Of a stretch of 61,714 nucleotides of DNA, positions 9,637 to 26,864 are shown piece by piece. The position numbers were made by a program, and so were the translations under genes. Each line of letters begins with the position of its first letter. Within the stretch, counting starts at the first letter, position 1. Location: positions 1-61,714 of IMG/VR virus record IMGVR_UViG_3300032213_001078, one strand, 5' to 3'. Under the pieces are notes generated by a model that saw nothing but the letters and a program-made list of their open reading frames with translations, was not told the DNA's origin and did not search any database. The DNA is from a virus. Lineage: Duplodnaviria; Caudoviricetes.

Positions 9637-9637
9637 C

Positions 9638-10807
9638 ATGATTACAGCAAACCCAAAGTGGATTACAACCACACCGTACTACGAAGAATTTTTACGCTAT
9701 TATCAAATGGCTAAAACACAACAAGAAGAGTGTAACTTAGGAATTATAAAACATGCAGACAGTTCTGTACCTGACGAATTAATGAAACACGTTGAACTAT
9801 ACGACGTGGTTGAAAGAAAGTATGCGGGGTTTTCACAGATTGTTAATGACGTATTTTACGGTTTTTCCGAAGATCACCCTTACTGGAATAAAATGACTCA
9901 AGGTCACATGACAAAACAGAGAGAAACCGTTTCTAAAAATTGGACAGGTAAGCGCGACGTGTTCGGTTTAAGAGAGTGGATCTATTTGTTCTTGTTTCAC
10001 AGATTAACAGGATCTGCTATTAACTATTCGATGAAACCTTCAGGGTATCACAATACGCTTCTGTTCGAGATGCATCAAGCTGACAATATACCTCAGCTAA
10101 TCGACATCATAAAAGGAGCAACTAAACCATTTTACACATCGGTAGGTTATCAGTTCCCAAGTTTCCCTAAACCTCAAGGCAATTACAAACGTGGAGGAGA
10201 TTATTTCCTTTGCGAATTCGTTCCTCAGTTAGCAGAAGACGTAGCTACCTTCTTAGAAACTGGTGGAAAGAAAAACTTGAGAGAAGTAGGAGACTTTATG
10301 TTTAAGTGGAACGCAGACAGAGGACTAAGAGCTTTTAGATTTCAGTACGCTGCATTTATTGCTGACATAGCCGATTGGTTCCCTGAATTTGTTAATCGTG
10401 AAAGTCCATTCTATTACGGTACGAATGCAAAGGAGTGCGTTAGCTATTTAGCAAAGAAGTCTACGAAAATGCCAGAAGAAGTATTTTTGGATTCGGTTAT
10501 GATGAAGATATACGACGACACTGGTAGTTTTCCGTATAACGCTGAGGACGTTGCGTGTGACTCAATTAGATGGATTGAGAACTACGTAAAACCAGGAGCG
10601 GATTACGATCACTTAGATTTCGATCATGTATGGAACAGCAGCAGTATTAAAGACCATCCATACGGTCGTCAGAAAGCAATGTTAGATCTTGGTCTTGTCC
10701 CAAGCTTTAACGGTATTACAGAACACCCTTCCGATGACAAGGTACTTAAATCACTTCTTATAACAGAAGAGCAATACAAGGAAAGGGTACAAGAACATTA
10801 TAAATGA
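9638..10807 (+). CDS. putative DNA base-hypermodification enzyme (aGPT-PPlase / amino acid:DNA transferase-like)
   Basis: FQYAAFIADIADWFP...YYGTNA and NAEDVACDSIRW resemble the G-x-G-A and E-x-x-x-C motifs of this HhH-derived group; paralogous to 11298. Confidence 0.5.
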   Translation: MITANPKWITTTPYYEEFLRYYQMAKTQQEECNLGIIKHADSSVPDELMKHVELYDVVERKYAGFSQIVNDVFYGFSEDHPYWNKMTQGHMTKQRETVSKNWTGKRDVFGLREWIYLFLFHRLTGSAINYSMKPSGYHNTLLFEMHQADNIPQLIDIIKGATKPFYTSVGYQFPSFPKPQGNYKRGGDYFLCEFVPQLAEDVATFLETGGKKNLREVGDFMFKWNADRGLRAFRFQYAAFIADIADWFPEFVNRESPFYYGTNAKECVSYLAKKSTKMPEEVFLDSVMMKIYDDTGSFPYNAEDVACDSIRWIENYVKPGADYDHLDFDHVWNSSSIKDHPYGRQKAMLDLGLVPSFNGITEHPSDDKVLKSLLITEEQYKERVQEHYK

Positions 10808-12324: not shown

Positions 12325-12356
12325 AAAGGGAGCTCATTTGGGCTCCCTTTTATTTT
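12325..12356. terminator. bidirectional intrinsic terminator between convergent blocks
   Basis: AAAGGGAGC-TCATTTGG-GCTCCCTTT-TATTTT. Confidence 0.85.
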
Positions 12357-12379: not shown

Positions 12380-12853
12380 TTATTCCTCTTCGGCCTCGAG
12401 CTCGGGTGTGATTGGATTGACATCCCTGCGATACCATTTGCCTGCTATATTCTCGTTATAGCTTTCTACCTCTAAAACTCTTAGAGTCATTTGATAATAG
12501 GTCTCCCAATAGCTCATCTGTTTCTTCGTGGTGCAAACTCTTAATATATCTCTAGTGAATGCTTCTTTGCCGAATACTTTGATATCCTCTGTGATTAACT
12601 TACTAGAGCCATAATAGTCTGCCCAATTGCTTTCTTTGATCTCTTTTCTTTTCTTTGGGATACGTCCTGGTTTAATCCACTCTGAAATCTCTTTCTTTGT
12701 TAGAATTTTTGTTAGTACGTTTCTAAGGATTTTTTTACCGACGTAGAATTTGCCGGTTTTATTGTTTGTGACTTTGTAGACAAATCCTACAACATCATCT
12801 GGGAAATCTTTTAGTTGAGTAAGCTGTTTCCCTTCATATAACCAATTTGACAT
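12380..12853 (-). CDS. GIY-YIG family protein of T4-like phages
   Basis: GFVYKVTN..TGKFYVGKK, ESNWADYYGS, YNENIAG. Confidence 0.8.
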   Translation of the reverse strand: MSNWLYEGKQLTQLKDFPDDVVGFVYKVTNNKTGKFYVGKKILRNVLTKILTKKEISEWIKPGRIPKKRKEIKESNWADYYGSSKLITEDIKVFGKEAFTRDILRVCTTKKQMSYWETYYQMTLRVLEVESYNENIAGKWYRRDVNPITPELEAEEE

Positions 12854-12875: not shown

Positions 12876-13181
12876 TTAGCTATCCCAACGAATAACAAAT
12901 ACCATATCTGTATTTGGTGGAACTGGGTAAGGAGTAGATAGTTTACCTACTACTAATAATTCGTCTGCATCATTGTATACTCCTACGGTTGTTACGTAAG
13001 GTCTGAACTCTGAACCTGTTACAGCGTCAATATAAGATCCGCTTGTTCCTGCCTTAATTGCAGACGGGTTAAGCGTATAGTTAAAATCGTTTTCATTCAC
13101 TTGACATCTAACCTCTTTTTGATAGATGGTAGATTCTGCTTCGAATGAAAGAGTAAATGGTTCAAATTGGATAAATGGCAT
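12876..13181 (-). CDS. virion structural protein, stand-alone C-terminal module
   Basis: NYTLNPS and TTVGVYND..ELLVVGKLS.P match the C-terminus of ORF 25134..26195. Confidence 0.75.
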   Translation of the reverse strand: MPFIQFEPFTLSFEAESTIYQKEVRCQVNENDFNYTLNPSAIKAGTSGSYIDAVTGSEFRPYVTTVGVYNDADELLVVGKLSTPYPVPPNTDMVFVIRWDS

Positions 13182-13185
13182 ACTC

Positions 13186-13195
13186 TAATAAATAT
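13186..13195 (-). promoter_or_regulatory. putative late promoter motif
   Basis: ATATTTATTA 4 nt before ATG 13181. Confidence 0.6.
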
Positions 13196-16100
13196 TAGTT
13201 CTCTCGTCTTTCCTCTGGTTTATAGTGAGCGATTCTATTATGGTGAATAGGACTTGCCAATAATACAGATGGTTTTAAATTTCCTTTTTTAGTTTCTTGG
13301 AACATGTAACTCATCCAAGTCTGTTCGTAAGGTCTTTCCCATGTAGTATCTAAGAACATCTTTTGATTGCCTTTCTTTCCGCATATAGTTGGCCAGTTAG
13401 CGTAGTAAACATCTCCAGTAATATAACCTAAACCATCTACGAATTCTATCTTATCGAATACAGTTCTTGGACAATTAGGATCTAATCCATGTTCAGGCAA
13501 TTTATCATAATCAGGATACAACTCTGTTCTTACTGCTTGAGGAATATTGTACCAAGACACTTGAATGTTATTGTCCATATAAACCTCAGTGAAAGATAAT
13601 TTTAAAAAGTCTACATCAGATCCTCCGTGCATTATCTTTAAAATCTTATCGTATAAATTATCTACGCACAATCTAAATCCGTTTCTACAAAATCCAATCT
13701 CTTCTGGTGGGTGAATACCCATATCATCTTCTAAGAATAAGTAATAATCACTATCTGATTCTTGGAAGTGTTTAGCTGCTCTGAATCTACCGCCGTTAAT
13801 TCCCGTATTCTCGTTTGTTATGATATGTTCGAATCCGTATTTCTCACAAAGTTTAGCATTCTCTATTCTTGCTTCTTCGTTAGTAGAGTTATCAATTAAA
13901 ATATTCCTAGTGTTAGTGATAAACTTAGGATGCTTTAACCAAGTTTGAATAGTATGTTCTACTTGATACGGAAAATTAAAGGTCAACATATAGATAGACA
14001 TTTTTAATTTGTCAACGTCTACTATTCTTTTTTGTAATTTAGCTCTACGTTCTGGTATGGCTTCTAATTCTGCGGTATCGTCTAATGCTTTGCTAACAAA
14101 CTCTTGAATGTGTCCGTTAATTCCTATTCTAGTCGCTCTACATAATTCAGGGTATTTTTCTGCTAATATAGAGAATAAGCTTTCTTCTGTACCCATAAGA
14201 CCTTCGTTCAAAGAGTCGTTTAATAAGTGCCAGTAATAAGAATTGACTTCTTTAATAGCTTCTTTGTTTCCACCGAATAATCCTCCTCTACAAATCCACT
14301 CAACAGTTCCACCAGCCATTCTGTTCAATGCATCCCATTCAAATCCGTGTACTTCTTTAACTCCTTGCCCATAATACGGATAAGGATATTGTACGAATAA
14401 GAAAGGATCTAGATATTTTTCTAACTTATCAAAGAATCTTTCTTGGATTAATAAGTTGTAGTTTATAGTGTTTGTAATTCCACCATCTACCCAAACAAAG
14501 TTATCCGATTGAAAAGAATCATATATAGAAGCATCGTGTAATAATGACATCTTTGACATTACGATTGGATTGTACCACTCTAAACTACCTTGTGGAGAAT
14601 CTTTTAACCAACCGGCTCTATTCAACCAATCTTCTGAAGTTCTAATCTCTTGTGCTTTGTCCCAAAAAGGACCAAACATATTTTTAATATCGTCTAATTC
14701 AAAGTATTTAATTGCAGTGTTAGATGTACTTCTTCTTTGCCAAACAAAATCTTCCAATTCTCTTGGTATAAAGATGAACATATTAACATCCACTTTCAAC
14801 AACTTATCGAAACACTCTAAGTAATGATCGAAAGATCTACCAGGTCTACCAATATTCCAAAGACCTGTTACTACAGTTAGTTTATTTTTTTCTTTTTTCC
14901 AATCGTAATTTTCAGGGATTTGTTTTGCAAATGCGATATCAATTGCTTCTACGTCTTGCGCGCCAATTTCGTAAACGTATCCTCCAATTTCTAATTTTTC
15001 TTTTAATGCAGATAACTCTTCTTCAAAAAGATTCATGTGTTCTATTCTAATACACTTAGGTCTGTACTTGGTTAAATCTAATTGTTTAAATATTTCCCAA
15101 TCCATTCCTTCTGTGTCTGTCAAGAACACATCTATTTTTTCTACATTATTATTTTTTAATATAGAATCTAAAGTAAGACACTTTACATTTATTTTTTCTG
15201 AGTAATTGTCTTTTACGAAAATATCTCTGTCATAATCTGATGCGAAACCGTTTCTTGGTGGAAATGCAGTTGCCATTCCTTTATATCCTAGCTGTAAATC
15301 GTATTCTTGTATTTTACTATCAGGAACATACATCATCTCTAAAGTTCCATCGTAATCTGCTACTGCTACATTTTCAAATATGTGATTAGATCGTGTGCTT
15401 AAATTACTTTTTAACTTCTCGTATACTTCAGGTATTGGTTCTACGAATACTCCTCCCCAACTATATCTATCAATATAGCCTCTCATGTCATCGAAAGTAA
15501 TTCCGTCCATTGCTCCCGCTTGAAATACAAATATATCTTTAAAGTTCTGACCTAAATAATGTAAAGCAATCGCTAAAGAATCGTTGTAAGGTTTTTCGTA
15601 TCCAGCTTTTTCTATTGCGCCAATAGGTTGCTCTTCGTACGCAGATACAGACTCTTCATTAAAGTCGGTAATAGAATTTAATTGGCCTTTTCTAGACCCT
15701 GTCTTTTTTATTACTATATAATTTCCATTCCAAAAATATTCATGATCTTTTATTAAAGGAACGATATCTTCTTTTCTGTCAGCAAATAAATTTGTGGCAT
15801 CTCCTCCGCCTCCTAAATCTTCTATAATATAAAAACCACCAAATTTAACTCTTCCGAATAAATTCTTTAATGTTTGCAATTGTGCCTCTGCTTTGTGCAA
15901 TCCGTCGTCTATAATAATATCGTAAGTGTTGGCTTGTAATGCTTGATCTAATTGTTTTTTATCTCTTGAATCGCAAATAAAAGTATTGATTCTGTCTTCT
16001 GAAATTCTACAATCCTCGGCTATATCTAATCCATGTACTTGGGCTTTTGGAAAATAATCTCTCCACACTCTTAAAGATCCGCCTTGTTTGTACTCAGGAT

Positions 16101-16287
16101 AATATAAATTTTGTATTTGTAGAAAGTGACCTTCTACGTTTACATCTAAACTACCCACTCCAACTTCTAATACAGAAGATACTTCTCCTCTAATTTCGTT
16201 AAATAGGAATTCGTACGCTTGAGAGTAACCACTTATTTTTTTATCGGTATAATATTTGTCGATATAAAAATCTAAATTTTTGAACAT
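13195..16287 (-). CDS. four-domain glycan-modifying enzyme: class I SAM methyltransferase + FkbM methyltransferase + HtrL/YibB-like glycosyltransferase + GT-A domain
   Basis: LEVGVG/GGSLRVWRDYFP/DIIIDDGLH/YIIED; QAGAMDG/FVEP/DTEGMD; TVVTGLWNIGR/WVDGG/GGLFGG; YLFLEDD. Confidence 0.75.
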   Translation of the reverse strand: MFKNLDFYIDKYYTDKKISGYSQAYEFLFNEIRGEVSSVLEVGVGSLDVNVEGHFLQIQNLYYPEYKQGGSLRVWRDYFPKAQVHGLDIAEDCRISEDRINTFICDSRDKKQLDQALQANTYDIIIDDGLHKAEAQLQTLKNLFGRVKFGGFYIIEDLGGGGDATNLFADRKEDIVPLIKDHEYFWNGNYIVIKKTGSRKGQLNSITDFNEESVSAYEEQPIGAIEKAGYEKPYNDSLAIALHYLGQNFKDIFVFQAGAMDGITFDDMRGYIDRYSWGGVFVEPIPEVYEKLKSNLSTRSNHIFENVAVADYDGTLEMMYVPDSKIQEYDLQLGYKGMATAFPPRNGFASDYDRDIFVKDNYSEKINVKCLTLDSILKNNNVEKIDVFLTDTEGMDWEIFKQLDLTKYRPKCIRIEHMNLFEEELSALKEKLEIGGYVYEIGAQDVEAIDIAFAKQIPENYDWKKEKNKLTVVTGLWNIGRPGRSFDHYLECFDKLLKVDVNMFIFIPRELEDFVWQRRSTSNTAIKYFELDDIKNMFGPFWDKAQEIRTSEDWLNRAGWLKDSPQGSLEWYNPIVMSKMSLLHDASIYDSFQSDNFVWVDGGITNTINYNLLIQERFFDKLEKYLDPFLFVQYPYPYYGQGVKEVHGFEWDALNRMAGGTVEWICRGGLFGGNKEAIKEVNSYYWHLLNDSLNEGLMGTEESLFSILAEKYPELCRATRIGINGHIQEFVSKALDDTAELEAIPERRAKLQKRIVDVDKLKMSIYMLTFNFPYQVEHTIQTWLKHPKFITNTRNILIDNSTNEEARIENAKLCEKYGFEHIITNENTGINGGRFRAAKHFQESDSDYYLFLEDDMGIHPPEEIGFCRNGFRLCVDNLYDKILKIMHGGSDVDFLKLSFTEVYMDNNIQVSWYNIPQAVRTELYPDYDKLPEHGLDPNCPRTVFDKIEFVDGLGYITGDVYYANWPTICGKKGNQKMFLDTTWERPYEQTWMSYMFQETKKGNLKPSVLLASPIHHNRIAHYKPEERREN

Positions 16288-16297
16288 GTAACTTTTT

Positions 16298-17941
16298 TTA
16301 TTTCAGTATGTAATAATCTTCTAATAGCAAACCATCCATTTGTGTAGACTCTAAAATTTTAAAGGCTTCTTTAATCGTAGAAAGAATAGGACTTCCATCA
16401 ACATTAAAAGAGGTATTCAATAAAACTCCTACTCCTGTTTTTCTATCCATTTCGGTTAATAAATTGTACAACCATTCGTTGTCTTCTTTAGTAACTGTTT
16501 GAACTCTAGCTGTTCCATCTACGTGAGTGATAGCCGTTAATTTCTCTCTCCACTCTTCTTTAACTTTAGGGCAGAAACTCATCCACTTAGATTCTCCTTC
16601 CCATTCAAAATACTTAGATACATCTTCAAGTCTAACTACTGGTGCGAATGGTCTGTACCACTCTCTGTGTTTTACTTTTTCGTTAAGTATATCTTTCATA
16701 TCTGGAATAGACGGATTGCAAAGAATGCTTCTATTTCCTAAAGCACGAGGTCCATGTTCTGCTCTTCCTCTTGCAACACCGATGATTCTACCTTCGATAA
16801 GATCATCTGTCATTTTATCTATGTTGAAATAAGTAGTAGTAGTATTGTAAAAGTTTTGAATATAATGACCGAGAGAATCTATATCAAACAATTCAAGACC
16901 AGAATAAGTAGCATCAAAAGGTTCTTGTGGCTTTAATTGGTTTAACATTAAACCTAAAGCAATACCACAATCGTTAGGATTAGGTCCAACAAATACTTTT
17001 TTATTAAACTCTTTAACTAATCTAGTATTCAATAAGATATTCAATCCGCATCCTCCTGCCATACAGATAGGCAAATCAGGGTATTTTTCAAAATAAGGTT
17101 TTGCATACTCTAAAAAACATTCTTCGAATGCTCTCTGAGAAGTAGCAGCCACATCGTAAGCTGTCTGATCTAGCAATCTGTTTTTTATGTCGAAAGTAAC
17201 ACCTATGTTTTTTCCTAATTCATTAATCTTATTTTCGTAATCGTAGTAACCTGTTTCGTCCCATGGCCCAAAGTGATTTCCATTAGGTCCGCTCTTGTAA
17301 AAATGAATGAAATGAGGTACCCACTCTTCTATTACATTTCCGTAAGAAGCGAGTCCCATAATTTTACCAGAGTATACTAAGTTGCCTATGTTAAGAGGTT
17401 CTTTTTTAATATCGCCTAAATACTCTCCAAATACCATATAAGAAAATCCTAAGTCATAAAAAATATGCGGATTATTTTCATAAGGATTTAAAACTGATTC
17501 TAGCAATTTAGGAGATTCACCTCTTAAGCAATGGTAGATATTAAAAAATCCATCGTTACCTCCACCGTCGAAAGAGAAAGCTAAAGCTTCTTGATAAGGA
17601 GACTGATAGAAACATCCTGCAACATGAGCTTCGTGATGCTTGCCGTGAATGTAATTATCTGCTTTAATAAAAGTTTCTAGCTGGTATCTCTCTTCCATTA
17701 TTACATCTGTATTCATGCAATAACAGTTCTCAAACTTATCTATATTAAATTTTTTCTTTAAAAAGTTTGGAATATACTCTGATAAGAATAATAAATCTGC
17801 ATTCTTAGGACACATGTACTGTGCCATTCCGCTATTCTTATAATTTAAAAATCTTTCTACTTCTAATACGGTTAATATTTTTCCGTTCTCTTCTACTACA
17901 TACGCTGAGTTGTGTGAACCGTAGAATGCTATATTCGCCAT
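16298..17941 (-). CDS. O-carbamoyltransferase, NodU/CmcH family
   Basis: HHEAH, DGGG, GKIMGLASYG, GPRALGNRSIL, REWYRPFAP, HVDGTARVQTV, LNTSFN. Confidence 0.92.
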   Translation of the reverse strand: MANIAFYGSHNSAYVVEENGKILTVLEVERFLNYKNSGMAQYMCPKNADLLFLSEYIPNFLKKKFNIDKFENCYCMNTDVIMEERYQLETFIKADNYIHGKHHEAHVAGCFYQSPYQEALAFSFDGGGNDGFFNIYHCLRGESPKLLESVLNPYENNPHIFYDLGFSYMVFGEYLGDIKKEPLNIGNLVYSGKIMGLASYGNVIEEWVPHFIHFYKSGPNGNHFGPWDETGYYDYENKINELGKNIGVTFDIKNRLLDQTAYDVAATSQRAFEECFLEYAKPYFEKYPDLPICMAGGCGLNILLNTRLVKEFNKKVFVGPNPNDCGIALGLMLNQLKPQEPFDATYSGLELFDIDSLGHYIQNFYNTTTTYFNIDKMTDDLIEGRIIGVARGRAEHGPRALGNRSILCNPSIPDMKDILNEKVKHREWYRPFAPVVRLEDVSKYFEWEGESKWMSFCPKVKEEWREKLTAITHVDGTARVQTVTKEDNEWLYNLLTEMDRKTGVGVLLNTSFNVDGSPILSTIKEAFKILESTQMDGLLLEDYYILK

Positions 17942-17944
17942 TTA

Positions 17945-19222
17945 TTAATTATTTATTTGATATTCTATTCTTTCAACCCAACCTTCTTCTTCTGTGAATC
18001 CCCAAAATACTACTCTTGTCGGTTTTTCATCTGTTAAGAAAAACTCTTCGTAATGTATTTGTTGTCCTTTGTGCATAAAGTTTTCCAATTCTGGTCCAGT
18101 AATATACTTGTGATTTACTGCTTTACCAGTTGCATCGTCAAACGCTACTAAGATATGTTTGTAATTCTTTCTTGGAAAATCATGAGGATGTATAGTTACC
18201 AAATGATAGAAAGATCCCATGAAAGACTGCTCCCATAATTCGTCGTCTGCGATGTATGGATTAGGCGGATAGTTATTGTCTAATGTAAACTTCTGAACCG
18301 CTTTTCTTTTAAAGTGGAATCCAGCATACTTTTCAAAATCTCTTAAAGATCTCACTGTACCTAAATCGTATCCAGTCAAATCAATAGTTGGATCTTCTTC
18401 AGTTCTTAACAATACTCTAATTTTCTTTCTTGCGTATTCTTGTTTTTGGAACCAATCTACTCCTAACTTATAATCATCGTCCCACTTCAACATACCAGAT
18501 CTCTCTTCTCTCATAGTAGAATGCCAAACAACTAACTTGTGGGGATGGAATAAATCGTATCCATGAGTGTAAGACCTAACTGTTAAGTTTAATTCTTCTC
18601 CACTAAAATAAATATCGGTATCGTGTCTTATCTCTTTTGCCCATTCAGATCTAGCAAAACAGAAGTGACCTGATAAAAATCTACTCATAGGTGGTTCAGT
18701 CATATCTTGCCAACCGTGTAATAAACCTGGTCTGATGAAGATAGTTCCGTGAGGATAGAAGCAAGCGAAGGTTTGCTGCCATGGCTCCATAGTACGTCCT
18801 TCTGGATCGTTAAATGGTGTATATAAAGGTAAATAAGCCCCTAAGATTGGTTTGTAACCTTGAGCTTCTAAACCGCTATGCATTTCGATTAAAGTCTCGT
18901 CCCAATCTTTTGCAAATCTGTGATGAGAATCTAACTGTAGAATATAGTCTTGATTGGTTAAAAGTTTCTCGTTGATTTGAGCTCTTGCCCATGGTAGACC
19001 TTCGGCTTCGGTGTATAAAACGTCCATAATATGGAAACGTTTGTCGCCTCTAAATTCGTCTACGTTATCGAACTTATCTTCTGGGTTGTATTGTCTACAA
19101 ATACCGAAGTGAACTCTTTTTGGATACTTAGCTTGTGCTAAAGCATCTTTGATTGTTGGTACTAATTCCGGATCTCTATAAGATGGAAGATGCACCAAAA
19201 TTGTAGGTTGTTTCTTTGCCAT
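17945..19222 (-). CDS. GT60-like (Pfam GlcNAc) polypeptide N-acetylglucosaminyltransferase, copy B
   Basis: SYRDPEL.PT, QLDSHHRF..WD, FLSGHF.F, YFSGEE..L.VRSYTHGYDLF.P. Confidence 0.85.
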   Translation of the reverse strand: MAKKQPTILVHLPSYRDPELVPTIKDALAQAKYPKRVHFGICRQYNPEDKFDNVDEFRGDKRFHIMDVLYTEAEGLPWARAQINEKLLTNQDYILQLDSHHRFAKDWDETLIEMHSGLEAQGYKPILGAYLPLYTPFNDPEGRTMEPWQQTFACFYPHGTIFIRPGLLHGWQDMTEPPMSRFLSGHFCFARSEWAKEIRHDTDIYFSGEELNLTVRSYTHGYDLFHPHKLVVWHSTMREERSGMLKWDDDYKLGVDWFQKQEYARKKIRVLLRTEEDPTIDLTGYDLGTVRSLRDFEKYAGFHFKRKAVQKFTLDNNYPPNPYIADDELWEQSFMGSFYHLVTIHPHDFPRKNYKHILVAFDDATGKAVNHKYITGPELENFMHKGQQIHYEEFFLTDEKPTRVVFWGFTEEEGWVERIEYQINN

Positions 19223-19274
19223 AACAGAATTTAAAACTTTTATTTTATATTTGTATCTTTATCTTTTTAGTAGA

Positions 19275-20948
19275 TTAATATTCAGAAGATGTTGCACTTA
19301 TAGTTCCGTTACCATTTGCACTATAATTGTAAAGATCGCTAGCAAATGGAATTCCTTCTGCGACGTCATTATATATTTCAGTTCCTGCATCGTAAACTAT
19401 TAAACTAGTTTGTGCTATTAGTGGACTTGTTGCACCTGCGCTGACTGATACTCCTATTGCAGCGCCTATAGGTACTGTTATTTGTCCGCTAGTAGTAGAT
19501 GTCGCGTTAACTGGTGTATTACCGTTTACTGTTATAGTAAAGTTTCCGCTTTGAGCAAATTGTGAAAAATCATAGTCAATTGTGTATGTAGATGGAGCAG
19601 CGCTTGTAGAAACTGAAGGCGTTACTGATATGCTTGGTGTAGCTGTTATAGAAACACTTGGAGTAACTGATATGCTTGGTGTAGCTGATATAGAAACAGA
19701 AGGCGTAACTGATTCTGAAGGAGTTCTTGTTATAGATACAGAAGGAGTTACAGATTCACTAGGAGTTCTTGTTATAGACACGCTTGGAGTTACAGATTCT
19801 GAAGGAGTTCTTGTTATAGATACAGAAGGAGTTACAGATTCACTAGGAGTTCTTGTTATAGAAACTGAAGGTGTAACTGATACGCTTGGTGTGACTGATA
19901 CTGTAATACTAGGTGTTACTGATATGCTAGGAGTTCTGGTTATAGTTACGCTTGGAGTAATAGAAATACTAGGCGTAGCGGATATTGTGATACTAGGTGT
20001 TCTTGTTATTGAAACAGATGGAGTAACTGTTATTGATGGCGTTACTGTTATGCTTGGAGTTACTGATACGCTAGGAGTTACAGAAATAGAAGGCGTTACT
20101 GTTACGCTTGGAGTAACTGAAATACTAGGAGTTACTGAGACACTCGGAGTTACAGATATACTAGGAGTAGCAGATACAGATACACTTGGAGTAACTGATT
20201 CACTTGGAGTTACTGAAGAACTAGGCGTTCTTGTTGGTGTAATTGAAGGCGTAGGCGATATTGATTCGCTTGGCGTTATTGATACCGATGGTGTATTAGA
20301 AACAGTTATCGATGGAGTTATAGAAATAGTAGGTGTAATACTTGCACTAGGAGTTCTAGTCACCGATGGAGTTACAGATATCGAAGGAGTAAGTGAAACG
20401 CTTGGAGTCTCTGAAGGAGATACCGTAGGAGTATTAGTAACAGAAATACCAGGAGTTACTGATATAGTTGGGGTTATCGATATCGTAGGTGTAATAGATA
20501 TACTAGGAGTAGCTGAAGGCGTTCTAGTTGGAGTACGAGTAACACTTGGAGTTATCGATATGGTAGGTGTAATGCTTGGAGTAAAACTTGGAGTTCTAGA
20601 AGCATTAGGCGTAATAGTAGGTGTAACTGTAGGAGTAAGAGAAACTGATGGTGTAACACTCAAACTTGGTGTCGCACTAACAGAAGCGCTTGGAGTTTCA
20701 CTTGGGGTTATAGATAAAGATGGAGTAACCGAAGGCGTGATAGACGTAGAAGGCGTAAGAGAATAAGGCACTCCATCCTGAGGCGGACCTGGAACGTATG
20801 TGTTTGCAAAAGCCTGCGCTACAGCTTCTTGTGCAAAAGGAATGTTTCTACTCCTTGTGCGATTTTCGTAAAGATTGTTATTGTCGTTTTTAGCATCCGC
20901 AGCCTGTGGGCCTTTGGCTAAACTAGACTTTAAATTTATTAGAGGCAC
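19275..20948 (-). CDS. mucin-like Thr/Pro/Ser-repeat protein with C-terminal beta-rich domain
   Basis: About 385 aa of T-P-S-h-(S/T)-h repeats; GTG start behind a late motif. Confidence 0.8.
   Translation of the reverse strand: MPLINLKSSLAKGPQAADAKNDNNNLYENRTRSRNIPFAQEAVAQAFANTYVPGPPQDGVPYSLTPSTSITPSVTPSLSITPSETPSASVSATPSLSVTPSVSLTPTVTPTITPNASRTPSFTPSITPTISITPSVTRTPTRTPSATPSISITPTISITPTISVTPGISVTNTPTVSPSETPSVSLTPSISVTPSVTRTPSASITPTISITPSITVSNTPSVSITPSESISPTPSITPTRTPSSSVTPSESVTPSVSVSATPSISVTPSVSVTPSISVTPSVTVTPSISVTPSVSVTPSITVTPSITVTPSVSITRTPSITISATPSISITPSVTITRTPSISVTPSITVSVTPSVSVTPSVSITRTPSESVTPSVSITRTPSESVTPSVSITRTPSESVTPSVSITRTPSESVTPSVSISATPSISVTPSVSITATPSISVTPSVSTSAAPSTYTIDYDFSQFAQSGNFTITVNGNTPVNATSTTSGQITVPIGAAIGVSVSAGATSPLIAQTSLIVYDAGTEIYNDVAEGIPFASDLYNYSANGNGTISATSSEY
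19598..20763 (-). repeat. TPS hexa/octapeptide tandem repeat; exact 68-bp duplication at 19711 and 19795
   Basis: Repeat visible in protein and DNA; 84-bp period in the TPSESVTPSVSITR block. Confidence 0.9.
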
Positions 20949-20958
20949 GCGTGTTTTG

Positions 20959-20967
20959 TATAAATAT
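20959..20967 (-). promoter_or_regulatory. putative late promoter motif
   Basis: ATATTTATA 10 nt before GTG 20948. Confidence 0.6.
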
Positions 20968-20978
20968 TTAGTAAAAGC

Positions 20979-22238
20979 TTATTCGTAGCTAATCTTGTCC
21001 TCAATTCTTTCCATCCAGCCTTTGGATGCGCTATGAGGCCAAACTCTCCATGAAACTGGCTGCTTATCGCTTTCGTATTCTCTCCATATTTGAATAAAAT
21101 GATCGTCTTTGTTCATATTCATAAGACCTTTTAACTCTTCTCCAGAAATGTCTTGTCTATATAAGTCTTTTCCTTCTGAGTCTAGGAAAGCTACCGCAGC
21201 TGAATCGTAGTCTGTTTCTGTCAAAGATCCCTTATACACATTTATACAATACTTTATCTTACTAATTAGTCCTGTTTCGTAGTCTGAAATTATTGGAGGA
21301 AACTGATTGGCTATAGTCTCTTGGTGAATCTGTCTTGTTTTAAACTTAAGACCTGCATACTTTTCATAATCTTCTAAAGTTCTCTCAGTTCCAAATCCGA
21401 AACCTTCTAAAGATCTTCTCTTACAAGGAGGACATCCGCCTGGGTCCATTTCGAATAAGGCTCTAAATCTTGCGTAAGAGGCTTTGTCTAAATCATTAAA
21501 AGTTGAGTGATCGTCCCAATGTCTTTGCTTTCCGTTTCTAGTGTATTCGTGCCAAACGATAGGTCTGTGAGGTGAGAATAGATCGTATCCATGAGTGTAT
21601 GCTCTAGCAGATAAACTGGTCTCTTCTCCATGAAAATAAAACTTAGGATCGTAAGGTACTTCTTTTACAAATTTGCCTAAAGTAAAGATAAAGTGTCCTG
21701 ATAAGAATCTACTTTTGAATGGCTCAGTTCTGTTCTCCCAATTTGGTACATGAAATGGTTGTAAGAACACCGCGCCTTCAGGTAGAAATCTCATGATATT
21801 TAATCCCCACACCTCTTGCACTCTGCCTGCTGGATCGTTATCTGGAAAATACCCTGGAATGTACGCAGATAAAATTGGTTTTTTGTGACCTTTAACTTGT
21901 AAGTAACTAACGTAGTCCTTCAAAGTTCTATCCCAATTTTTTGTAAATCTATGATGAGAATCTAGTTGAAAGTAGTAGTCTTCTCCGTTGTAATAATCTT
22001 GAATTTTATTTCTTACCCAACAAACTCCTAAAGAATCCTTATGATCAATGTCCAATATGGTGAATCTGTCGTCTCTAACGAATTCATTTAGATTGTCCCA
22101 AGTGTCCTCTTCAGAGTGTTGCCAACCCACGCATATGTGCAAGTTTTCTGGTTCTTGACAGTTATTGATTAGATCACGTAAAGTTGGTAAAAGTTCGGGG
22201 TCCCTATAGGCCGCTATCGAAACGAAGATTTTTGACAT
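20979..22238 (-). CDS. GT60-like (Pfam GlcNAc) polypeptide N-acetylglucosaminyltransferase, copy A
   Basis: IFVSIAAYRDPELLPTL, QLDSHHRF..WD, VPYDP.FYFHGEE.SLSARAYTHGYDLFSP. Confidence 0.88.
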   Translation of the reverse strand: MSKIFVSIAAYRDPELLPTLRDLINNCQEPENLHICVGWQHSEEDTWDNLNEFVRDDRFTILDIDHKDSLGVCWVRNKIQDYYNGEDYYFQLDSHHRFTKNWDRTLKDYVSYLQVKGHKKPILSAYIPGYFPDNDPAGRVQEVWGLNIMRFLPEGAVFLQPFHVPNWENRTEPFKSRFLSGHFIFTLGKFVKEVPYDPKFYFHGEETSLSARAYTHGYDLFSPHRPIVWHEYTRNGKQRHWDDHSTFNDLDKASYARFRALFEMDPGGCPPCKRRSLEGFGFGTERTLEDYEKYAGLKFKTRQIHQETIANQFPPIISDYETGLISKIKYCINVYKGSLTETDYDSAAVAFLDSEGKDLYRQDISGEELKGLMNMNKDDHFIQIWREYESDKQPVSWRVWPHSASKGWMERIEDKISYE

Positions 22239-22292
22239 AACCCAATATTAATCAATTTTTGAAACTTAATAAAATTTTAGTTTAAAGTGATA

Positions 22293-23936
22293 CTAAGCAA
22301 AAGCATTACAGTTCGTGTCAATACCAACAGTAACCGTGGTAACGCCTCTAGTAAAAGTGCTGCCTGGGTAATATGGAGATCCATCTATGTATACAACGTT
22401 GTATATCCTATACGCACTAAATCCGTAAATAGCGTAAGTTCCTGTGCCAACATTAAATGATCCAAACTGACCTTTTGTTACCGTTGAAGACGAACTATTA
22501 CCTATAGATCCTTCAGATGGTCCAATACAATCAGGACCAAGATACATATCAGCACTTATACCATAAGGAGAATCTATAGTGAAATTTCCATCTACGGCAT
22601 CACTTAAATTATATACGAAAACATATTCCCCACCCGCGTTTTGGAATACTCCAGAAATATATAAGAAAGCAGATGTTGGGTAACTAAAATTAGTGTAACC
22701 TCTCACATAATAAGTTCTACCTCCAACTACACTAAATGTTTTATTTGTATTAGAGTTGTAATCTACTGTAGTATCGTTGATTGTATTACCAGCACTATCG
22801 GTTACCAATAATCTTCTTGTTGAAGTTCCGTAAAGCGGTTTTGGATAATCAATGATATTTCCTGTGGCTTGTGCAAATAAAGAATCGTCCTGGAATATTG
22901 TTCCTCCAGTGTATAAAACGTCACCAGGAGTTGTGAATACCTCGTTGACAATATTACTTCCATTTTGATTAACAGCTACATTTCCATCTAAGAAAACTGT
23001 ACCATCATTGTATTCAGAGTTATTATAGTATAACGCTGTGATTGTTAAAGGACTTCTTGATGGTGTAATACTAGGAGTTCTTGATATTGAAATAGTAGGA
23101 GTTCTTGTTATAGAAACAGACGGTGTTACAGATTCTGAAGGCGTTCTTGTTATAGAAACCGATGGAGTTACAGACTCGCTAGGAGTTCTTGTTATAGAAA
23201 CAGAAGGCGTAACTGAAGTACTTGGAGTTCTTGTTACTGTAACACTAGGCGTAACTGATACGCTAGGAGTATTACTTATAGAAATAGAAGGAGTAACAGA
23301 ATTACTAGGCGTTCTTGTTATAGAAACACTTGGTGTAACTGATACACTAGGAGTATTACTTATAGAAACTCCCGGTGTTAAAGATATACTAGGTGTAGCC
23401 GATATAGAAACGCTAGGTGTTCTTGATACCGTTACACTAGGAGTAACTGAAACCGAAGGAGTAACAGATATGCTTGGAGTAACTGAAACCGACGGCGTTA
23501 CTGAAGAAGCCGGCGTAACTGATATCGATGGTGTTACAGATACAGATGGAGTAACAGATATACTAGGCGTAGCAGATATGGATACGCTTGGCGTCGCACT
23601 AGGCGTAACTGAAACTGTAACTGAAGGAGTAACAGATATCGAAGGTGTAGCTGAGATGGATACGCTCGGAGTAACTGAGAACGAAGGCGTAACTGATGGA
23701 GATGGAGTAGGACTTATAGGAACAATGTATCTAAAGTTACTATTTTGTCCGCAAGGATCCATATTTTCTAAAACTATATATTCTGCCGCATCAGGTACAG
23801 ATACTACGTAACCAGCATCTAGTTTGGAGGCCATAACGTTTTGTTCAACTATATTGTTAAAGTTGTCCCAATAGATAGTAAAAGGACCTGTTGCCATTCC
23901 TCTCTTAGTAATTTGTATGTATATCGATTGTGCCAT
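22293..23936 (-). CDS. mucin-like TPS-repeat protein with globular N- and C-terminal domains (tail appendage candidate)
   Basis: About 220 aa TPS repeat between a 70-aa N-domain and a 250-aa Y/G/T/N-rich C-region. Confidence 0.8.
   Translation of the reverse strand: MAQSIYIQITKRGMATGPFTIYWDNFNNIVEQNVMASKLDAGYVVSVPDAAEYIVLENMDPCGQNSNFRYIVPISPTPSPSVTPSFSVTPSVSISATPSISVTPSVTVSVTPSATPSVSISATPSISVTPSVSVTPSISVTPASSVTPSVSVTPSISVTPSVSVTPSVTVSRTPSVSISATPSISLTPGVSISNTPSVSVTPSVSITRTPSNSVTPSISISNTPSVSVTPSVTVTRTPSTSVTPSVSITRTPSESVTPSVSITRTPSESVTPSVSITRTPTISISRTPSITPSRSPLTITALYYNNSEYNDGTVFLDGNVAVNQNGSNIVNEVFTTPGDVLYTGGTIFQDDSLFAQATGNIIDYPKPLYGTSTRRLLVTDSAGNTINDTTVDYNSNTNKTFSVVGGRTYYVRGYTNFSYPTSAFLYISGVFQNAGGEYVFVYNLSDAVDGNFTIDSPYGISADMYLGPDCIGPSEGSIGNSSSSTVTKGQFGSFNVGTGTYAIYGFSAYRIYNVVYIDGSPYYPGSTFTRGVTTVTVGIDTNCNAFA
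23047..23718 (-). repeat. TPS hexa/octapeptide tandem repeat
   Basis: Same repeat units as at 19598-20763. Confidence 0.9.
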
Positions 23937-23942
23937 TTTCTA

Positions 23943-25124
23943 TTAACAAGTTGAAATTTGTGATCCTACTTGACCTCCACTTACTGCAAATATTTGACCA
24001 GAACTGTTTGCTATAGCCGTTATATTTGTAAATAAGACGTTGTAAGATTGATATAAATAAACGCCTGGTGCAACGTTATTTACTCCAATACCAAAGAATA
24101 CGTTATCTTTATTCGCTACAGGGAATCCACTAGACTGTATAAAGCAAGGATCATATTGTGCGCCTACAGTAGTTCCTAATATAGGTGTTAATGATACGGT
24201 AGGAGTAGGTGTAGGAGTTACAGATACTGTAGGAGTTCTCGTAGGCGTAATTGATACTGAAGGAGTAGCTGTAGGAGTAAGAGACGCAAACGGGGTAATT
24301 GTCTGAGTTACACTAGGTGTAAGTGATACTGAAGGCGTTACACTTATTGTTACTGTAACAGAAGGCGTAATACTTGGAGTAATTGAAATACTAGGCGTTA
24401 CACTTACGCTAACTGAAACGCTCGGTGTTCTTGTTGGCGTAATAGAAACAGAAGGCGTTCTTGTTGGAGTAACAGAAGGCGTAACAGAAGGCGTTAAGAA
24501 CGGAGTCAAAGATACGCTTGGTGTAGGAGTAGGACTAGGAAGAATAGCTTGAATAAAGAAATCAAACGTAGGATCTTGGAAGATACAAACGTAATCAGGA
24601 TCTGTAAACACTATAACTCCTTGAGCGTAAAATATGTTTCCTACTTTTCTATTTCCAACTAAAGCATCTATTAAGTTACCGTTTCCGTCGTCAACAATAT
24701 GATAGTTGGTACTATCTGGATTTAAAGGCAATAAGTGCAAAGTATTTCTTGCTACTTGCTCACCAAATTCGTTTCTTGGAATATAGAAAAAAGAGATTTG
24801 AGAATTAGGAGAGGTGGGAAAATATCTTGCATCCTCATCACCAGATCCTGATGCGGCAGTAGATTGCCACTGAGGATCGTAACCACTACCTGTCGCCAAT
24901 AGAGAACCAGAAATATATTCTTTGTAATAGAGCTGTTTGATCAACTCGTAGTTAAGAGCGTTATTATCCAATGAGCCAGTCACGGTCATAGGATGATTAA
25001 AGCCCCTATTTATCGTGATTCCAACATCGTCTAAAGATTGACTATAATATGATGAAGAATACTTTAATTTAATAGGAGCTGAAGATATGTCTGAAAACCT
25101 TATCGTATTCTTCGAGCTGCTCAT
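23943..25124 (-). CDS. virion structural protein N-terminal module fused to a TPS-repeat tail
   Basis: IPRNEFGE, IVDDGNGNL, VGNIFYAQGVIVFT align with the N-half of ORF 25134; then about 120 aa TPS repeat. Confidence 0.75.
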   Translation of the reverse strand: MSSSKNTIRFSDISSAPIKLKYSSSYYSQSLDDVGITINRGFNHPMTVTGSLDNNALNYELIKQLYYKEYISGSLLATGSGYDPQWQSTAASGSGDEDARYFPTSPNSQISFFYIPRNEFGEQVARNTLHLLPLNPDSTNYHIVDDGNGNLIDALVGNRKVGNIFYAQGVIVFTDPDYVCIFQDPTFDFFIQAILPSPTPTPSVSLTPFLTPSVTPSVTPTRTPSVSITPTRTPSVSVSVSVTPSISITPSITPSVTVTISVTPSVSLTPSVTQTITPFASLTPTATPSVSITPTRTPTVSVTPTPTPTVSLTPILGTTVGAQYDPCFIQSSGFPVANKDNVFFGIGVNNVAPGVYLYQSYNVLFTNITAIANSSGQIFAVSGGQVGSQISTC

Positions 25125-25133: not shown

Positions 25134-26195
25134 TTACCAGTCTAATTTAACTCTAATTAATGCCTCTTTCGTAAAGTCTTTAACTAAAGGTTTTGACATT
25201 TTAGCTACAGCCAACAATTCGTTATTGTCATTGTACATACCAACAGTTGTAGGGAATGTTTGAGGACTGTTAATGAAGTTAGAATAAACCAAGTTACCAG
25301 AACCAGATATGAATGAAGGGTTACTAGTGTAGTTGTATTCTCCGTTTTTAACTCTTACAAATACATAGTTAGAAGAGATTGTTTCTTGAGAATTTAATTG
25401 GAATCCAGATCCAGTTACAGAGAAAGCTCTAGCTCCACTTACAAATAATTCTAAAACTTTAGAATGATTGAATCCACCTAAAGCTGGTAAAGTACTACCG
25501 GTCATTTGTACGTTTAAACCTCCTGAACCAACTGGCAATGCCAAAGCTGATGGGTTTAAAATGATCGTGCCCATATCAGGTAAGTAGAAACCATAAGATC
25601 CAGCAGTTGTGTATCCTTTTGAAGCTCCCGCTAATGTTGGAGATGATGCAGCACTACCGTTAGATCCTGAAATTAAATTGTATAATCTTCCACCGTCAAC
25701 GTAAGTTATAGTAGAGATATCGTTTGAGTTATCGGTTAAAGATAATAAAGCAGATCCTGTGCCCAATACTAAGTTAAAAGTACCTGGCATTAAACTCTCT
25801 TTGTATCTGTTTCTATCAACAGGAAGAGCAATTAAATTTAAAGAAGAGGTTACTCCAGTTCCGTTATAAGAGAAATCTACTAAAGACTCAGCGTCTCCGT
25901 AAATTAAGTTTCTGTACTGTCCAAAAGTAATTCTACTTGGAGTATTTTGAGGGATCAACGGATTTAAAGGCGCTGAACCAGAACCGAAAGCGTGTCCGTA
26001 AGCAATAGAAAATTGAACTGCAGCATTGCTAAGATTAGATGCTGTTTGATACACATCTAAGTAATAACTTCCTGTAGCATTACCTGCTAAAGTAAAAAAT
26101 TGAGTAAGAACAGGAGAATTTGTGCTCCATGCTGGTGCTGTTACCGAATCTGCTGAGATCACAAAGTCTGTTGCGTCTAATCTTGAGAATGACAT
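25134..26195 (-). CDS. virion structural protein (tail/baseplate region)
   Basis: S/G/T/N-rich; TTVGMYNDNNELLAVAK motif typical of tail-fibre attachment domains. Confidence 0.7.
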   Translation of the reverse strand: MSFSRLDATDFVISADSVTAPAWSTNSPVLTQFFTLAGNATGSYYLDVYQTASNLSNAAVQFSIAYGHAFGSGSAPLNPLIPQNTPSRITFGQYRNLIYGDAESLVDFSYNGTGVTSSLNLIALPVDRNRYKESLMPGTFNLVLGTGSALLSLTDNSNDISTITYVDGGRLYNLISGSNGSAASSPTLAGASKGYTTAGSYGFYLPDMGTIILNPSALALPVGSGGLNVQMTGSTLPALGGFNHSKVLELFVSGARAFSVTGSGFQLNSQETISSNYVFVRVKNGEYNYTSNPSFISGSGNLVYSNFINSPQTFPTTVGMYNDNNELLAVAKMSKPLVKDFTKEALIRVKLDW

Positions 26196-26204
26196 AGTTT
26201 AATA

Positions 26205-26864
26205 TTATTGAGTTACTTTTGTAATGTTTACTGGTACACTTATTCTTGCTCCTGAATCTCTACCAACGATAACCAATGTGGTGTACAATGTAGAGTTATT
26301 TCCGAATAATGTATTTAATGTTGTAGCTGACAAGTTGATTGTTGTACCAATTACAGTCTTACTAACGTTAGTACCGATTGTAGTTGTGGTATTCAATGCT
26401 GTAGCTTCTGGAGTATTAACACCCAAACCATTGAAGGCACTCATTGTTCTAACGTCTCCGATGGTAGCAACGTAGCCCGATTGCTCGTAAGTGCTTGTAG
26501 CGCCTAAGTAGTTCAAAGTTTGAGGAGTAATAGATAGAGAAGCTCCTTGACGTAAAGAGATTGAGTTGTAGCCCACATCAATGATAGGAAGCTTAGCAGT
26601 ACCTCTTGGTAAAGTAATTAATTTGTACTTCATAATCTCTTGATCGTTAGGATATGCCTGTAAGATTGGCATAGCTTCGATTGCTTCGCCATAAAACGCA
26701 GACCCTGATGGGTGGTTAGGATTGTAAAGGGTATAATCGATCTCGTCGTCTGACAAAGAGAATTGAGTAATTCTAAAAGAACCATCGTTTCTAGCCAAAA
26801 GTTCTCTACCCTTTTTGGTTAAGATGGCGTCTACTACTACTGATGTGCTACTTAAATATGACAT
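26205..26864 (-). CDS. virion structural protein
   Basis: VDAILTKKGRELLA...ITQFSLSDDEIDY resembles fibre/baseplate attachment N-termini. Confidence 0.7.
   Translation of the reverse strand: MSYLSSTSVVVDAILTKKGRELLARNDGSFRITQFSLSDDEIDYTLYNPNHPSGSAFYGEAIEAMPILQAYPNDQEIMKYKLITLPRGTAKLPIIDVGYNSISLRQGASLSITPQTLNYLGATSTYEQSGYVATIGDVRTMSAFNGLGVNTPEATALNTTTTIGTNVSKTVIGTTINLSATTLNTLFGNNSTLYTTLVIVGRDSGARISVPVNITKVTQ

Follow-up and report, generated by a model that had tools for sequence, protein, structure and literature searches.

Linked PF11397 glycosyltransferase and Thr-Pro-Ser repeat genes in an uncultured tailed phage: a candidate system for O-glycosylation of tail appendages

Introduction

What use could a tailed phage have for a row of sugar-transferring enzymes whose genes are packed among genes for Thr/Ser/Pro repeat proteins? 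The question is raised by the IMG/VR virus record IMGVR_UViG_3300032213_001078, which was analyzed in its entirety (61,714 bp, completeness rating 38%; hereafter the window). Its genes include those for a large terminase subunit, a portal protein, an SbcC-like nuclease and baseplate wedge proteins of the T4 type, and complete relatives of this phage are 162-183 kb. Downstream of the baseplate genes it carries three genes for proteins with Thr-Pro-Ser (TPS) repeats, two glycosyltransferase (GT) genes, a carbamoyltransferase gene and a gene for a large fusion protein. A preliminary description of the sequence interpreted these genes as a mucin-type system that coats tail appendages with O-glycans. 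We have examined this proposal by family scans and by comparison with related loci in phages and bacteria. The gene content, the enzyme families, the predicted soluble location, the co-directional packing behind the baseplate genes and the recurrent pairing of GT and repeat genes are described below; from them we infer the acceptor, the sugar, the order of the steps, the incorporation into virions and the benefit. Phage-encoded cytoplasmic O-glycosylation of TPS repeat stalks on tail appendages is in our judgment the probable function, albeit by no means a certain one.

Both GTs belong to Pfam family PF11397, which we take to be equivalent to CAZy family GT60. Members of GT60 are polypeptide alpha-N-acetylglucosamine (GlcNAc) transferases that initiate mucin-type O-glycans on Ser/Thr-rich domains in Dictyostelium and Trypanosoma cruzi; they lack the ricin domain of family GT27, and a soluble cytosolic relative modifies Skp1 (PMC8724618; here and below, statements with such an identifier refer to the parts of the source that were available). 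Glycosylation of proteins in phage particles is known from few cases. The present locus would add to these an enzyme family that initiates mucin-type glycans in protists, together with its likely substrates, in very common uncultured phages; the family is also present in cultured jumbo phages and in bacteria.

Results and Discussion

A cassette of seven genes

All seven open reading frames (ORFs) of the preliminary description were found on the minus strand at exactly the coordinates given there. In the direction of transcription they are:

23943..25124, minus strand: TPS1, 393 aa, putative glycan acceptor/tail appendage (ORF and repeat statistics)
22293..23936, minus strand: TPS2, 547 aa (ORF and repeat statistics)
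20979..22238, minus strand: GT-A, PF11397 (GlcNAc/GT60-type) GT, 419 aa, predicted to be soluble (Pfam 3.4e-69; phrog_24687 2e-147)
19275..20948, minus strand: TPS3, 557 aa, GTG start (ORF and repeat statistics)
17945..19222, minus strand: GT-B, second PF11397 GT, 425 aa, 38% identical to GT-A (Pfam 7.1e-52)
16298..17941, minus strand: NodU/CmcH-type O-carbamoyltransferase, 547 aa (PF16861 4.6e-64, PF02543 8.3e-27, phrog_1601 1e-120)
13195..16287, minus strand: fusion protein, 1030 aa (FkbM and HtrL_YibB Pfam matches, PHROG match, sub-threshold hits)

The genes are tightly packed, with gaps of 3-54 nt. Each transferase gene had been said to lie directly after a TPS gene, which is the case for GT-A and GT-B but not for the carbamoyltransferase and the fusion protein, which follow GT-B. 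Neither transmembrane segments nor signal peptides were predicted in the cassette enzymes or the TPS proteins (maximal Kyte-Doolittle mean over 19 residues 1.52), and all of them are predicted to be cytoplasmic. The term mucin-type therefore suits the acceptor architecture and the enzyme family but not the compartment: the cassette would work like a mucin-type system without being one in the cell-biological sense.

The PF11397 glycosyltransferases

Against the PF11397 profile (named GlcNAc; cut-off 21 bits) GT-A scored 234.4 bits and GT-B 177.4 bits, with matches to positions 2-44 and 93-350 of the 352 in the profile. When 26 family members from several phage lineages, GT-B paralogues included, were aligned, Y11, R12, P14, D93, S94, H95, G204, E205, E206, W229 and H230 were invariant in all 26, D13 was conserved in at least 90% of them, and Q91 was invariant or nearly so. 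The assignment to a GT60-type family, proposed earlier from YRDP, DSH and GEE-type motifs that we likewise presume to define GT60, is thus borne out by scores far above the cut-off and by the presence of the motifs throughout the alignment. Both enzymes have in addition a conserved C-terminal part of about 120 aa outside the Pfam match. Sequence and profile searches of the PDB yielded no relative of the GT, and its nearest ESM Atlas clusters outside PF11397 are all GT2. From its family we propose that GT-A is an initiating polypeptide O-glycosyltransferase. GT-B is its conserved orthologous partner across a lineage of phages of 160-185 kb.

Homologues of GT-A are numerous, with 6715 at E <=1e-5 among 8000 scored candidates from a protein database, and their contigs reach 187 kb in length; the best 120 are all 59-92% identical and 416-420 aa long. 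Judged by these matches, the phage lineage bearing GT-A is very common in public metagenomes.

In another IMG/VR record (G080, the one behind locus L262) a GT-A-like and a GT-B-like PF11397 domain share one open frame of 1076 aa at about 7993-10338. Such an apparent natural fusion of the two paralogues would argue that GT-A and GT-B act together.

The TPS repeat proteins

The repeats have the consensus T-P-S-[VI]-S-[VI] and occupy regions of 134, 237 and 410 aa, in which Thr, Pro and Ser make up 63-66% of the residues. Pro is preceded by Thr at 118 of 131 positions, the most frequent spacing between Pro residues is six, and the Tandem Repeats Finder (TRF) periods of the DNA are 18/42/84/126 bp. 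In TPS1 the N-terminal domain (residues 1-189) is followed by a repeat rich in TP[ST] (190-323, with 59 Ser/Thr) and a short C-terminal domain; the protein matches phrog_15511 and has orthologues at the same position in two complete or near-complete relatives (G013 and G070). Its N-terminal domain defines a family with 71 homologues, which range from 223 to 668 aa and in two cases contain a PA14 domain. An ESM Atlas search with this domain returned viral clusters without names only, and the domain has no similarity to the neighboring 353-aa protein. TPS2 combines a conserved N-terminus of 75 aa with a TPS[VI]S[VI] repeat (66-302, 114 Ser/Thr) and a variable C-terminal domain of 245 aa, and in its alignment with relatives the N-terminus is conserved, the repeat differs by insertions and deletions of repeat units, and the C-terminal domain is divergent. 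In TPS3, a repeat of 410 aa (50-459, 199 Ser/Thr) is followed by a C-terminal domain of about 100 aa; its location between GT-A and GT-B is found only in the close clade of the window.

A conserved N-terminus, repeats rich in insertions and deletions, a variable C-terminal domain and the PA14 domain of some TPS1 family members would fit fibre-like proteins.

On the opposite strand of the repeats, the window has long Val/Gly/Leu-rich ORFs (19582-20766 and 23038-23811, plus strand). These are frame shadows of the repeats rather than genes, and gene callers are likely to report them.

The putative modifying enzymes

In the carbamoyltransferase, both the Carbam_trans_N and the Carbam_trans_C domain scored above cut-off (95.0 and 215.5 bits). 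The NCBIfam equivalog NodU was matched with 8.6e-48 and 163 bits against a cut-off of 1000, and the protein is therefore a member of the family but not a NodU orthologue.

The 1030-aa protein, described earlier as having four domains, comprises a class-I methyltransferase-like part (about 1-230), FkbM (257-431), HtrL_YibB (470-716) and a GT2-like part (about 760-1030). The two middle ones are above cut-off: FkbM with 69.6 bits against 22.7 (PF05050) and 47.9 against 37.7 (TIGR01444), HtrL_YibB with 40.6 against 24.1 (PF09612). The outer two are less firm: the N-terminal part matches phrog_21658 (5e-08) and Pfam methyltransferases below threshold only, and the C-terminal part reaches 15.9 bits against a cut-off of 23.3 for PF00535 (E 0.013, sub-threshold), albeit with a visible DxD-type EDD motif. 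HtrL_YibB is named for a gene of the E. coli lipopolysaccharide (LPS) core cluster; at 39.7 bits against 264.9 for the NCBIfam equivalog, the segment is probably kin of E. coli YibB at the level of the domain only. FkbM methyltransferases and NodU-type carbamoyltransferases generally act on glycans. Homologues of about 560 aa of the HtrL plus GT2-like half stand beside the GT in every lineage that was examined.

A proposed pathway

On this basis the following pathway is proposed. GT-A and GT-B, predicted to be soluble and presumably of GT-A fold, would transfer the first sugar, most likely an N-acetylhexosamine (HexNAc), onto Thr/Ser of the T-P-S-[VI]-S-[VI] repeats, of which the three TPS proteins offer about 370 candidate Ser/Thr sites; a candidate acceptor peptide of the repeat type is TPSVSVTPSISV. 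Extension of the glycan would then fall to two parts of the 1030-aa protein, HtrL_YibB and the GT2-like domain, and its FkbM and class-I methyltransferase domains together with the NodU-type carbamoyltransferase would cap sugar hydroxyls. The TPS proteins, with an N-terminal anchor, a stalk of variable length and a variable tip, would be built into the periphery of the tail as glycan-coated fibres or whiskers. The possible benefit may lie in stiffening, resistance to proteases or desiccation, adhesion or masking.

Co-occurrence of GT and repeat genes

Whether GT60 and TPS repeat genes occur together across phages had been set beforehand as a test of the proposal, and the outcome favors linkage. 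A scan of IMG/VR with a degenerate DNA pattern of 3.3 hexapeptide units gave at least 118 stretches and, among the matches listed, 80 loci, corresponding to 76 distinct records of which 73 were searched for PF11397. The family was present in 24 of these 73 repeat-chosen records (80 of at least 118 stretches). At a completeness of >=90% it was present in 5/6 records and at >=60% in 8/10; all eight large ones were positive, and the two negative ones have genomes of about 40 kb (G032 and G019). As a base rate, tblastn with GT-A matched 4 of 50,697 cultured-phage records. A repeat query gave 20 matches in phage XacN1, 15 in Xoo-sp13 and 14 in RAS14, and none in RaK2, GAP32, T4 and phiKZ. A tblastn search of cultured phages with TPS3 gave no match because the low-complexity filter removes the repeat.

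A matched sample consisted of 35 carbamoyltransferase-positive viral contigs of >=40 kb, picked by length out of 80 loci. Repeats were found in 19 of the 27 contigs with PF11397 as compared with one of the eight without (a weak match), corresponding to an odds ratio of 16.6 and a p value of 0.011, uncorrected for kinship. Among contigs at least 50% complete, the corresponding fractions were 7/8 and 0/2.

In bacteria, a profile scan with one genome per species gave 346 relatives, and genes were called crudely in 69 of 80 loci, the remaining 11 being dropped since the crude gene caller had lost the GT. TPS-rich genes constituted 9 of 130 immediate neighbors as against 12 of the 626 remaining genes (odds ratio 3.8, p 0.005), many of these bacterial loci being contigs of metagenome-assembled genomes (MAGs) and possibly phage DNA. 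An amino-acid regular expression for exact hexamer runs had given zero in all the bacterial loci and was replaced by a composition window. A more liberal label, a TPS gene within 2.5 kb, which applied to 42 of 115 rows of the GT tree, was left unused, as it is inflated by spurious ORFs in GC-rich genomes.

Adjacency of GT and repeat genes recurs in the window-like phages of 160-185 kb, in a 230-kb phage (G044), in a crAss-like element and in some bacteria.

These data also bear on the possibility that the main acceptors are other virion proteins, such as capsid, sheath or Ser/Thr-rich neighbors, with the TPS repeats as bystander linkers. In mycobacteriophages the glycans are located at the C-termini of capsid and tail-tube proteins (PMC12619734, citing Freeman 2023), and phages of the XacN1-like and L016-like groups have their TPS genes away from the GT. 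We nevertheless regard this alternative as quite unlikely in view of the TPS gene that lies directly beside the GT in four independent settings and the outcome of the matched control, and since Thr-Pro with Ser/Thr at every second position matches the kind of acceptor known for GT60 (PMC8724618).

Gene order in related phages and bacteria

In close relatives of the window (L007-L011, with 73-92% GT identity) the interleaved layout is preserved, and the number of TPS genes varies from two to four. The interleaving of enzymes and TPS genes is confined to this clade; in most relatives GT-A adjoins GT-B, and the TPS genes are upstream or tens of kb away. Three complete or near-complete genomes of 160-185 kb (G013, G048 and G070; GT identity 62-66%) share one gene order: a large protein, homologues of a 219-aa and a 353-aa protein, one or two TPS genes, adjacent GT-A and GT-B, variable enzymes (Methyltransf_24, GT2, DegT-type aminotransferase, RmlD-like), sometimes a carbamoyltransferase, and an HtrL/GT2-like protein.

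More distant lineages have a single GT. In the 230-kb phage, whose GT is 41% identical, two TPS genes are followed by the GT and an HtrL/GT gene. In G063 the order is GT, Methyltransf_24, a GT2-like gene, FkbM and HtrL/GT, and in G026, G052, XacN1 and Xoo-sp13 the GT is followed by a carbamoyltransferase of 765-768 aa and then a protein of about 550 aa. The latter is a homologue of the HtrL/GT2-like half in G026 and G052; in XacN1 and Xoo-sp13 two further ORFs intervene. Since the same partners are kept in distant single-GT lineages, the universal core is GT60 plus HtrL/GT2-like, and the pattern of one enzyme per TPS gene is local to the clade of the window.

Two of the loci from bacterial assemblies may be described in more detail. 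In a crAss-like virion block (phrog_14478 2e-218, crAss muzzle domains) on a 3.0-Mb contig of a Saprospiraceae MAG (L168:316-13876), the gene for a 673-aa (PT)n protein directly precedes a GT60 gene, and a protein of 1087 aa has the Gly_transf_sug domain twice; the crAss-like phage is either integrated in the genome or was co-assembled with it. The chromosome of the cultured bacterium Jiulongibacter sediminis (L182:5948-13151) has a copy of the complete cassette, in which two GT60 genes, a carbamoyltransferase and an FkbM plus HtrL protein surround a TPT-repeat protein of 262 aa that has a twin-arginine-like N-terminus. The copy is bordered by genes for a UDP-glucose dehydrogenase and a DUF2357/PD-(D/E)XK restriction-like protein. 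This locus could serve as a culturable bacterial model.

A FastTree phylogeny of 115 GTs requires at least four switches between phages and cells on well-supported branches, and the pairing of GT and repeat is therefore not the accident of one lineage. A wider interpretation, which we put forward as tentative and rather doubtful, is that GT60 and the TP[ST] repeat form an ancient mobile enzyme-plus-substrate module exchanged between bacteria and phages, the latter from at least four unrelated groups (T4-sized aquatic myoviruses, phages of 230 kb, jumbo phages of the XacN1 type and crAss-like phages). With this module the phages would cover their tail appendages with a brush of carbamoylated and methylated glycans, a viral glycocalyx, and the prokaryotic and viral pool would be the source of the eukaryotic GT60/GT27 initiators.

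The composition of these cassettes also suits a different function, namely remodelling of the host envelope, in which the enzymes would build or decorate LPS O-antigen, core or capsule (e.g. to block superinfection) and the TPS proteins would be unglycosylated spacers. The name of HtrL_YibB comes from an LPS-cluster gene, FkbM and NodU-type enzymes act on glycans of many kinds, the cassettes of relatives include genes for a DegT-type aminotransferase and an RmlD-like protein, which are typical of pathways to O-antigen sugars, and the J. sediminis locus adjoins a UDP-glucose dehydrogenase gene. Clusters of GT and sugar-modifying genes in large phages have earlier been read in this way (PMC7824862). 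Such a function leaves unexplained why the GT goes together with TP[ST] repeats in phages that are unrelated and why it is located in a tail or virion block in three phage types. Moreover, the scan of the cassette genes revealed neither a membrane anchor nor a flippase, a polymerase or an initiating transferase linked to a lipid carrier, and the characterized GT60 enzymes take polypeptide acceptors (PMC8724618). We therefore consider envelope remodelling unlikely.

XacN1 and other cultured carriers

XacN1, a jumbo phage of Xanthomonas, is a cultured carrier. Its ORF334 is a full-length GT homologue with 40% identity, followed, as in Xoo-sp13, by a carbamoyltransferase. Repeats are present in ORF350, ORF369, ORF370 and ORF372, which neighbor the genes for tail sheath and tail completion, and also in ORF384. 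According to its authors, XacN1 encodes two GTs (ORF328 and ORF334), has the RaK2 and GAP32 group as nearest relatives, and contains at least two detected virion glycoproteins, for which the phage GTs were proposed as makers (PMC5852040). The accessible part of this paper makes no mention of the repeat ORFs, nor of a link of the GT to repeats or to GT60. XacN1 thus provides an experimental hint of glycosylated virions in a carrier of a homologous enzyme. As the XacN1 virion proteome is deposited (ProteomeXchange PXD008065; PMC5852040) and XacN1, Xoo-sp13 and the Stenotrophomonas phages RAS14 and CM1 are cultured carriers, O-glycosylation of TPS stalks is directly testable.

Evidence that weighs against glycosylated tail stalks

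Several observations argue against the proposed pathway. That the repeats are glycosylated and that TPS proteins are present in virions are both our conjectures from sequence, the assignment of TPS proteins to the virion or tail having synteny as its basis. HtrL_YibB takes its name from an LPS-cluster gene, and this would suit a polysaccharide role as well. In the L012-L020 group (GT identity 54-56%) a contiguous enzyme cassette abuts a family-B DNA polymerase gene, and a TPS gene was found within the fetched flank at one of nine loci (L013), with none adjacent in the other eight; in the XacN1-like phages, the GT cassette is near DNA polymerase and RNase H genes. Of the repeat-positive records, 49/73 lack PF11397, most of them small fragments, and the near-complete 40-kb phages G032 and G019 have hexapeptide repeats without PF11397 but two GT2 genes each. 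On the other side, a 114-kb contig (G089, 66% complete) and seven further GT-positive fragments gave no repeat match, and a TPS-rich immediate neighbor was seen at only 9 of 69 bacterial loci. The repeat detection measures low-complexity similarity, with four genomes (RaK2, GAP32, T4 and phiKZ) as negative controls, and the co-occurrence counts are phylogenetically dependent, being uncorrected for shared ancestry.

As regards G032 and G019, substrates of this kind may be served there by enzymes of another family. In the L012-L020 group, all three long contigs (64-67% complete) carry TPS ORFs at 30-70 kb from the cassette, and the two contigs at 27% completeness have none.

The position of the cassette beside DNA polymerase genes in two groups could suggest that the GTs, carbamoyltransferase and methyltransferases decorate a modified base in phage DNA. 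A carbamoylated derivative of 5-hydroxymethylcytosine (5hmC) occurs in phage DNA. Phage enzymes of GT-A fold that glycosylate 5hmC also exist, often encoded near replication genes (preprint 10.1101/2023.12.21.572611). However, their JGT-like R..DDD..EDY/F motifs (same preprint) are absent from the alignment of 26 GTs, which has DSH and GEE instead. Tet_JBP was found in none of five complete carrier genomes, in a search whose positive control gave no signal. ThyA-like genes are absent from G013 and G044 (both rated 100% complete), and in the remaining three of the five a distance of 40-140 kb separates them from the cassette; XacN1 DNA could be mapped by digestion with BssHII, NaeI and SpeI (PMC5852040). 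DNA hypermodification is accordingly regarded as highly improbable.

Two of the ThyA-like matches, in G042 (about 44246-44842) and G070 (about 126227-126865), contain in-frame stops (two and four, respectively), and the copy in G048 is intact. The genes in G042 and G070 may be interrupted by an intron or endonuclease, or decayed.

Even less probable is that the cassette makes a small glycosylated and carbamoylated secondary metabolite unrelated to the virion. Carbamoyltransferase clusters in cyanophages have been read as metabolite or capsule-decoration systems (PMC7824862), but no polyketide synthase, nonribosomal peptide synthetase, halogenase or oxygenase was found among the cassettes scanned, and both the location among tail genes and the pairing with TPS repeats would be left unexplained.

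Comparison with known glycosylation systems

Glycosylation of TPS stalks, the function favored here, resembles several known systems in part. In the serine-rich-repeat loci of Gram-positive bacteria (GspB/Fap1), a repeat protein is encoded beside cytoplasmic GTs that add HexNAc, and the glycan is extended before arrival at the surface. These loci use the GT4-type GtfA/GtfB and an accessory Sec system. In contrast, a Pfam scan of the cassette proteins found no Glycos_transf_1 or accessory Sec families, the repeat is TPS[VI]S[VI], and the presumed destination is the virion. Chlorovirus PBCV-1 and giant viruses have eukaryotic hosts, atypical N-linked glycans on the major capsid protein, other GT families and no repeat stalk. 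What they have in common with the present proposal is virus-encoded, cytoplasmic, host-independent glycosylation of structural proteins, an analogy also cited by the XacN1 authors (PMC5852040).

The phage GTs share with the eukaryotic GT60 enzymes the Pfam family PF11397 and the DxH-type DSH motif, and no ricin-type lectin domain was detected in them; the known eukaryotic acceptors are Ser/Thr/Pro-rich mucin-like domains, and one eukaryotic member is soluble and cytosolic (PMC8724618). On the other hand, the phage and bacterial enzymes lack a membrane anchor and have the extra C-terminal part, and the phage GT genes show linkage to those of the presumed substrates and of carbamoyl- and methyltransferases. 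In Che8-type mycobacteriophages, likewise, phage GTs encoded near structural genes modify the virion's own proteins (PMC12619734, PMC11256854). There the glycans are at the C-termini of capsid and tail-tube proteins (PMC12619734), whereas here the presumed acceptors are hexapeptide-repeat stalks and the enzymes are PF11397, HtrL/GT2-like, carbamoyl- and methyltransferases. XacN1 has in common with the window the GT homologue, the carbamoyltransferase next to it, TP[ST] repeat ORFs of which some are by tail sheath genes, and, as reported, virion glycoproteins (PMC5852040); it differs in that its GT is single and near replication genes, not in a tail block.

Phage virion glycosylation as such is already known, as is the guess of the XacN1 authors that GTs act on virion proteins (PMC5852040). 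In the open-access literature, we found no report that identifies this enzyme as GT60-type, nor one of its conserved HtrL/GT, carbamoyl- and methyltransferase partners or of its recurrent pairing with TP[ST] hexapeptide-repeat proteins in unrelated phages and bacteria. A search of the same literature for GT60 with phage gave nothing on topic, one preprint merely listing GT60 among viral CAZymes.

If the proposal is true, PF11397 and the hexapeptide repeat would form a pair of sequence markers for glycan-coated virions, and the enzymes would provide a prokaryotic, soluble and readily expressed model of mucin-type initiation. Long low-complexity proteins annotated as hypothetical in jumbo phages might then find an explanation, and a new variable would enter phage adsorption, particle stability and immune recognition.

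Genomic setting of the cassette

The cassette is part of a row of nine co-directional genes, from the gene for a 1365-aa protein (31051) down to a 101-aa ORF (12876), with gaps of 3-89 nt. The surrounding features are:

32512-34784: baseplate wedge genes (phrog_6 and phrog_261 matches)
26954..31051, minus strand: 1365-aa protein, putative baseplate/fibre protein between the wedge genes and the TPS block (orthologues in relatives, no PHROG match)
25134..26864, minus strand: two conserved genes (353 aa and 219 aa), putatively tail/baseplate-distal (same order in G013, G048 and G070)
12876..13181, minus strand: 101-aa ORF that closes the block downstream, paralogous to the last 70 aa of the 353-aa protein (25134-26195)
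12325..12350, no strand assigned: bidirectional terminator-like hairpin (hairpin scan)

The preliminary description placed the cassette in a tail module. The baseplate wedge matches agree with this, but the intervening genes are without family match: Pfam, PHROG and NCBIfam scans gave none for the 353-aa and 219-aa proteins, nor for the remaining genes between the wedge and TPS genes. Within the lineage, the 353-aa and 219-aa genes are always upstream of the TPS genes. The 101-aa ORF is 38% identical to the C-terminus of the 353-aa protein over 72 aa (BLASTP E 1e-11), and as these two paralogues flank the block, it would lie inside one presumed structural unit. Apart from the hairpin at 12.33 kb, the minus strand has no terminator-like site from 31.5 kb to 12.3 kb. 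The T4-type late promoter motif TATAAATA is present in nine copies against 8.1 expected, and the copies within the block are on the wrong strand, so that no timing can be inferred; sigma-70-like sites are likewise not enriched (66 against 70.2 expected). At the DNA level none of the cultured phages is close, a megablast of the whole region against them giving no match.

Two further genes were noted. At the 3' end of the block (12380-12853, minus strand), a gene for a 157-aa GIY-YIG/homing-endonuclease-like protein (phrog_447 6e-35, phrog_314) is 95% identical in G013, where the neighboring cassette genes are 66-90% identical. The higher identity suggests that this gene is a mobile element. The other gene (53527-54126, plus strand) encodes a 199-aa product and is situated near the packaging genes, 30 kb from the cassette. 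In the L012-L020 group its homologues (55-74% identical) are found about 4 kb upstream of the GT cassette, and the difference in position therefore indicates large-scale rearrangement between the groups.

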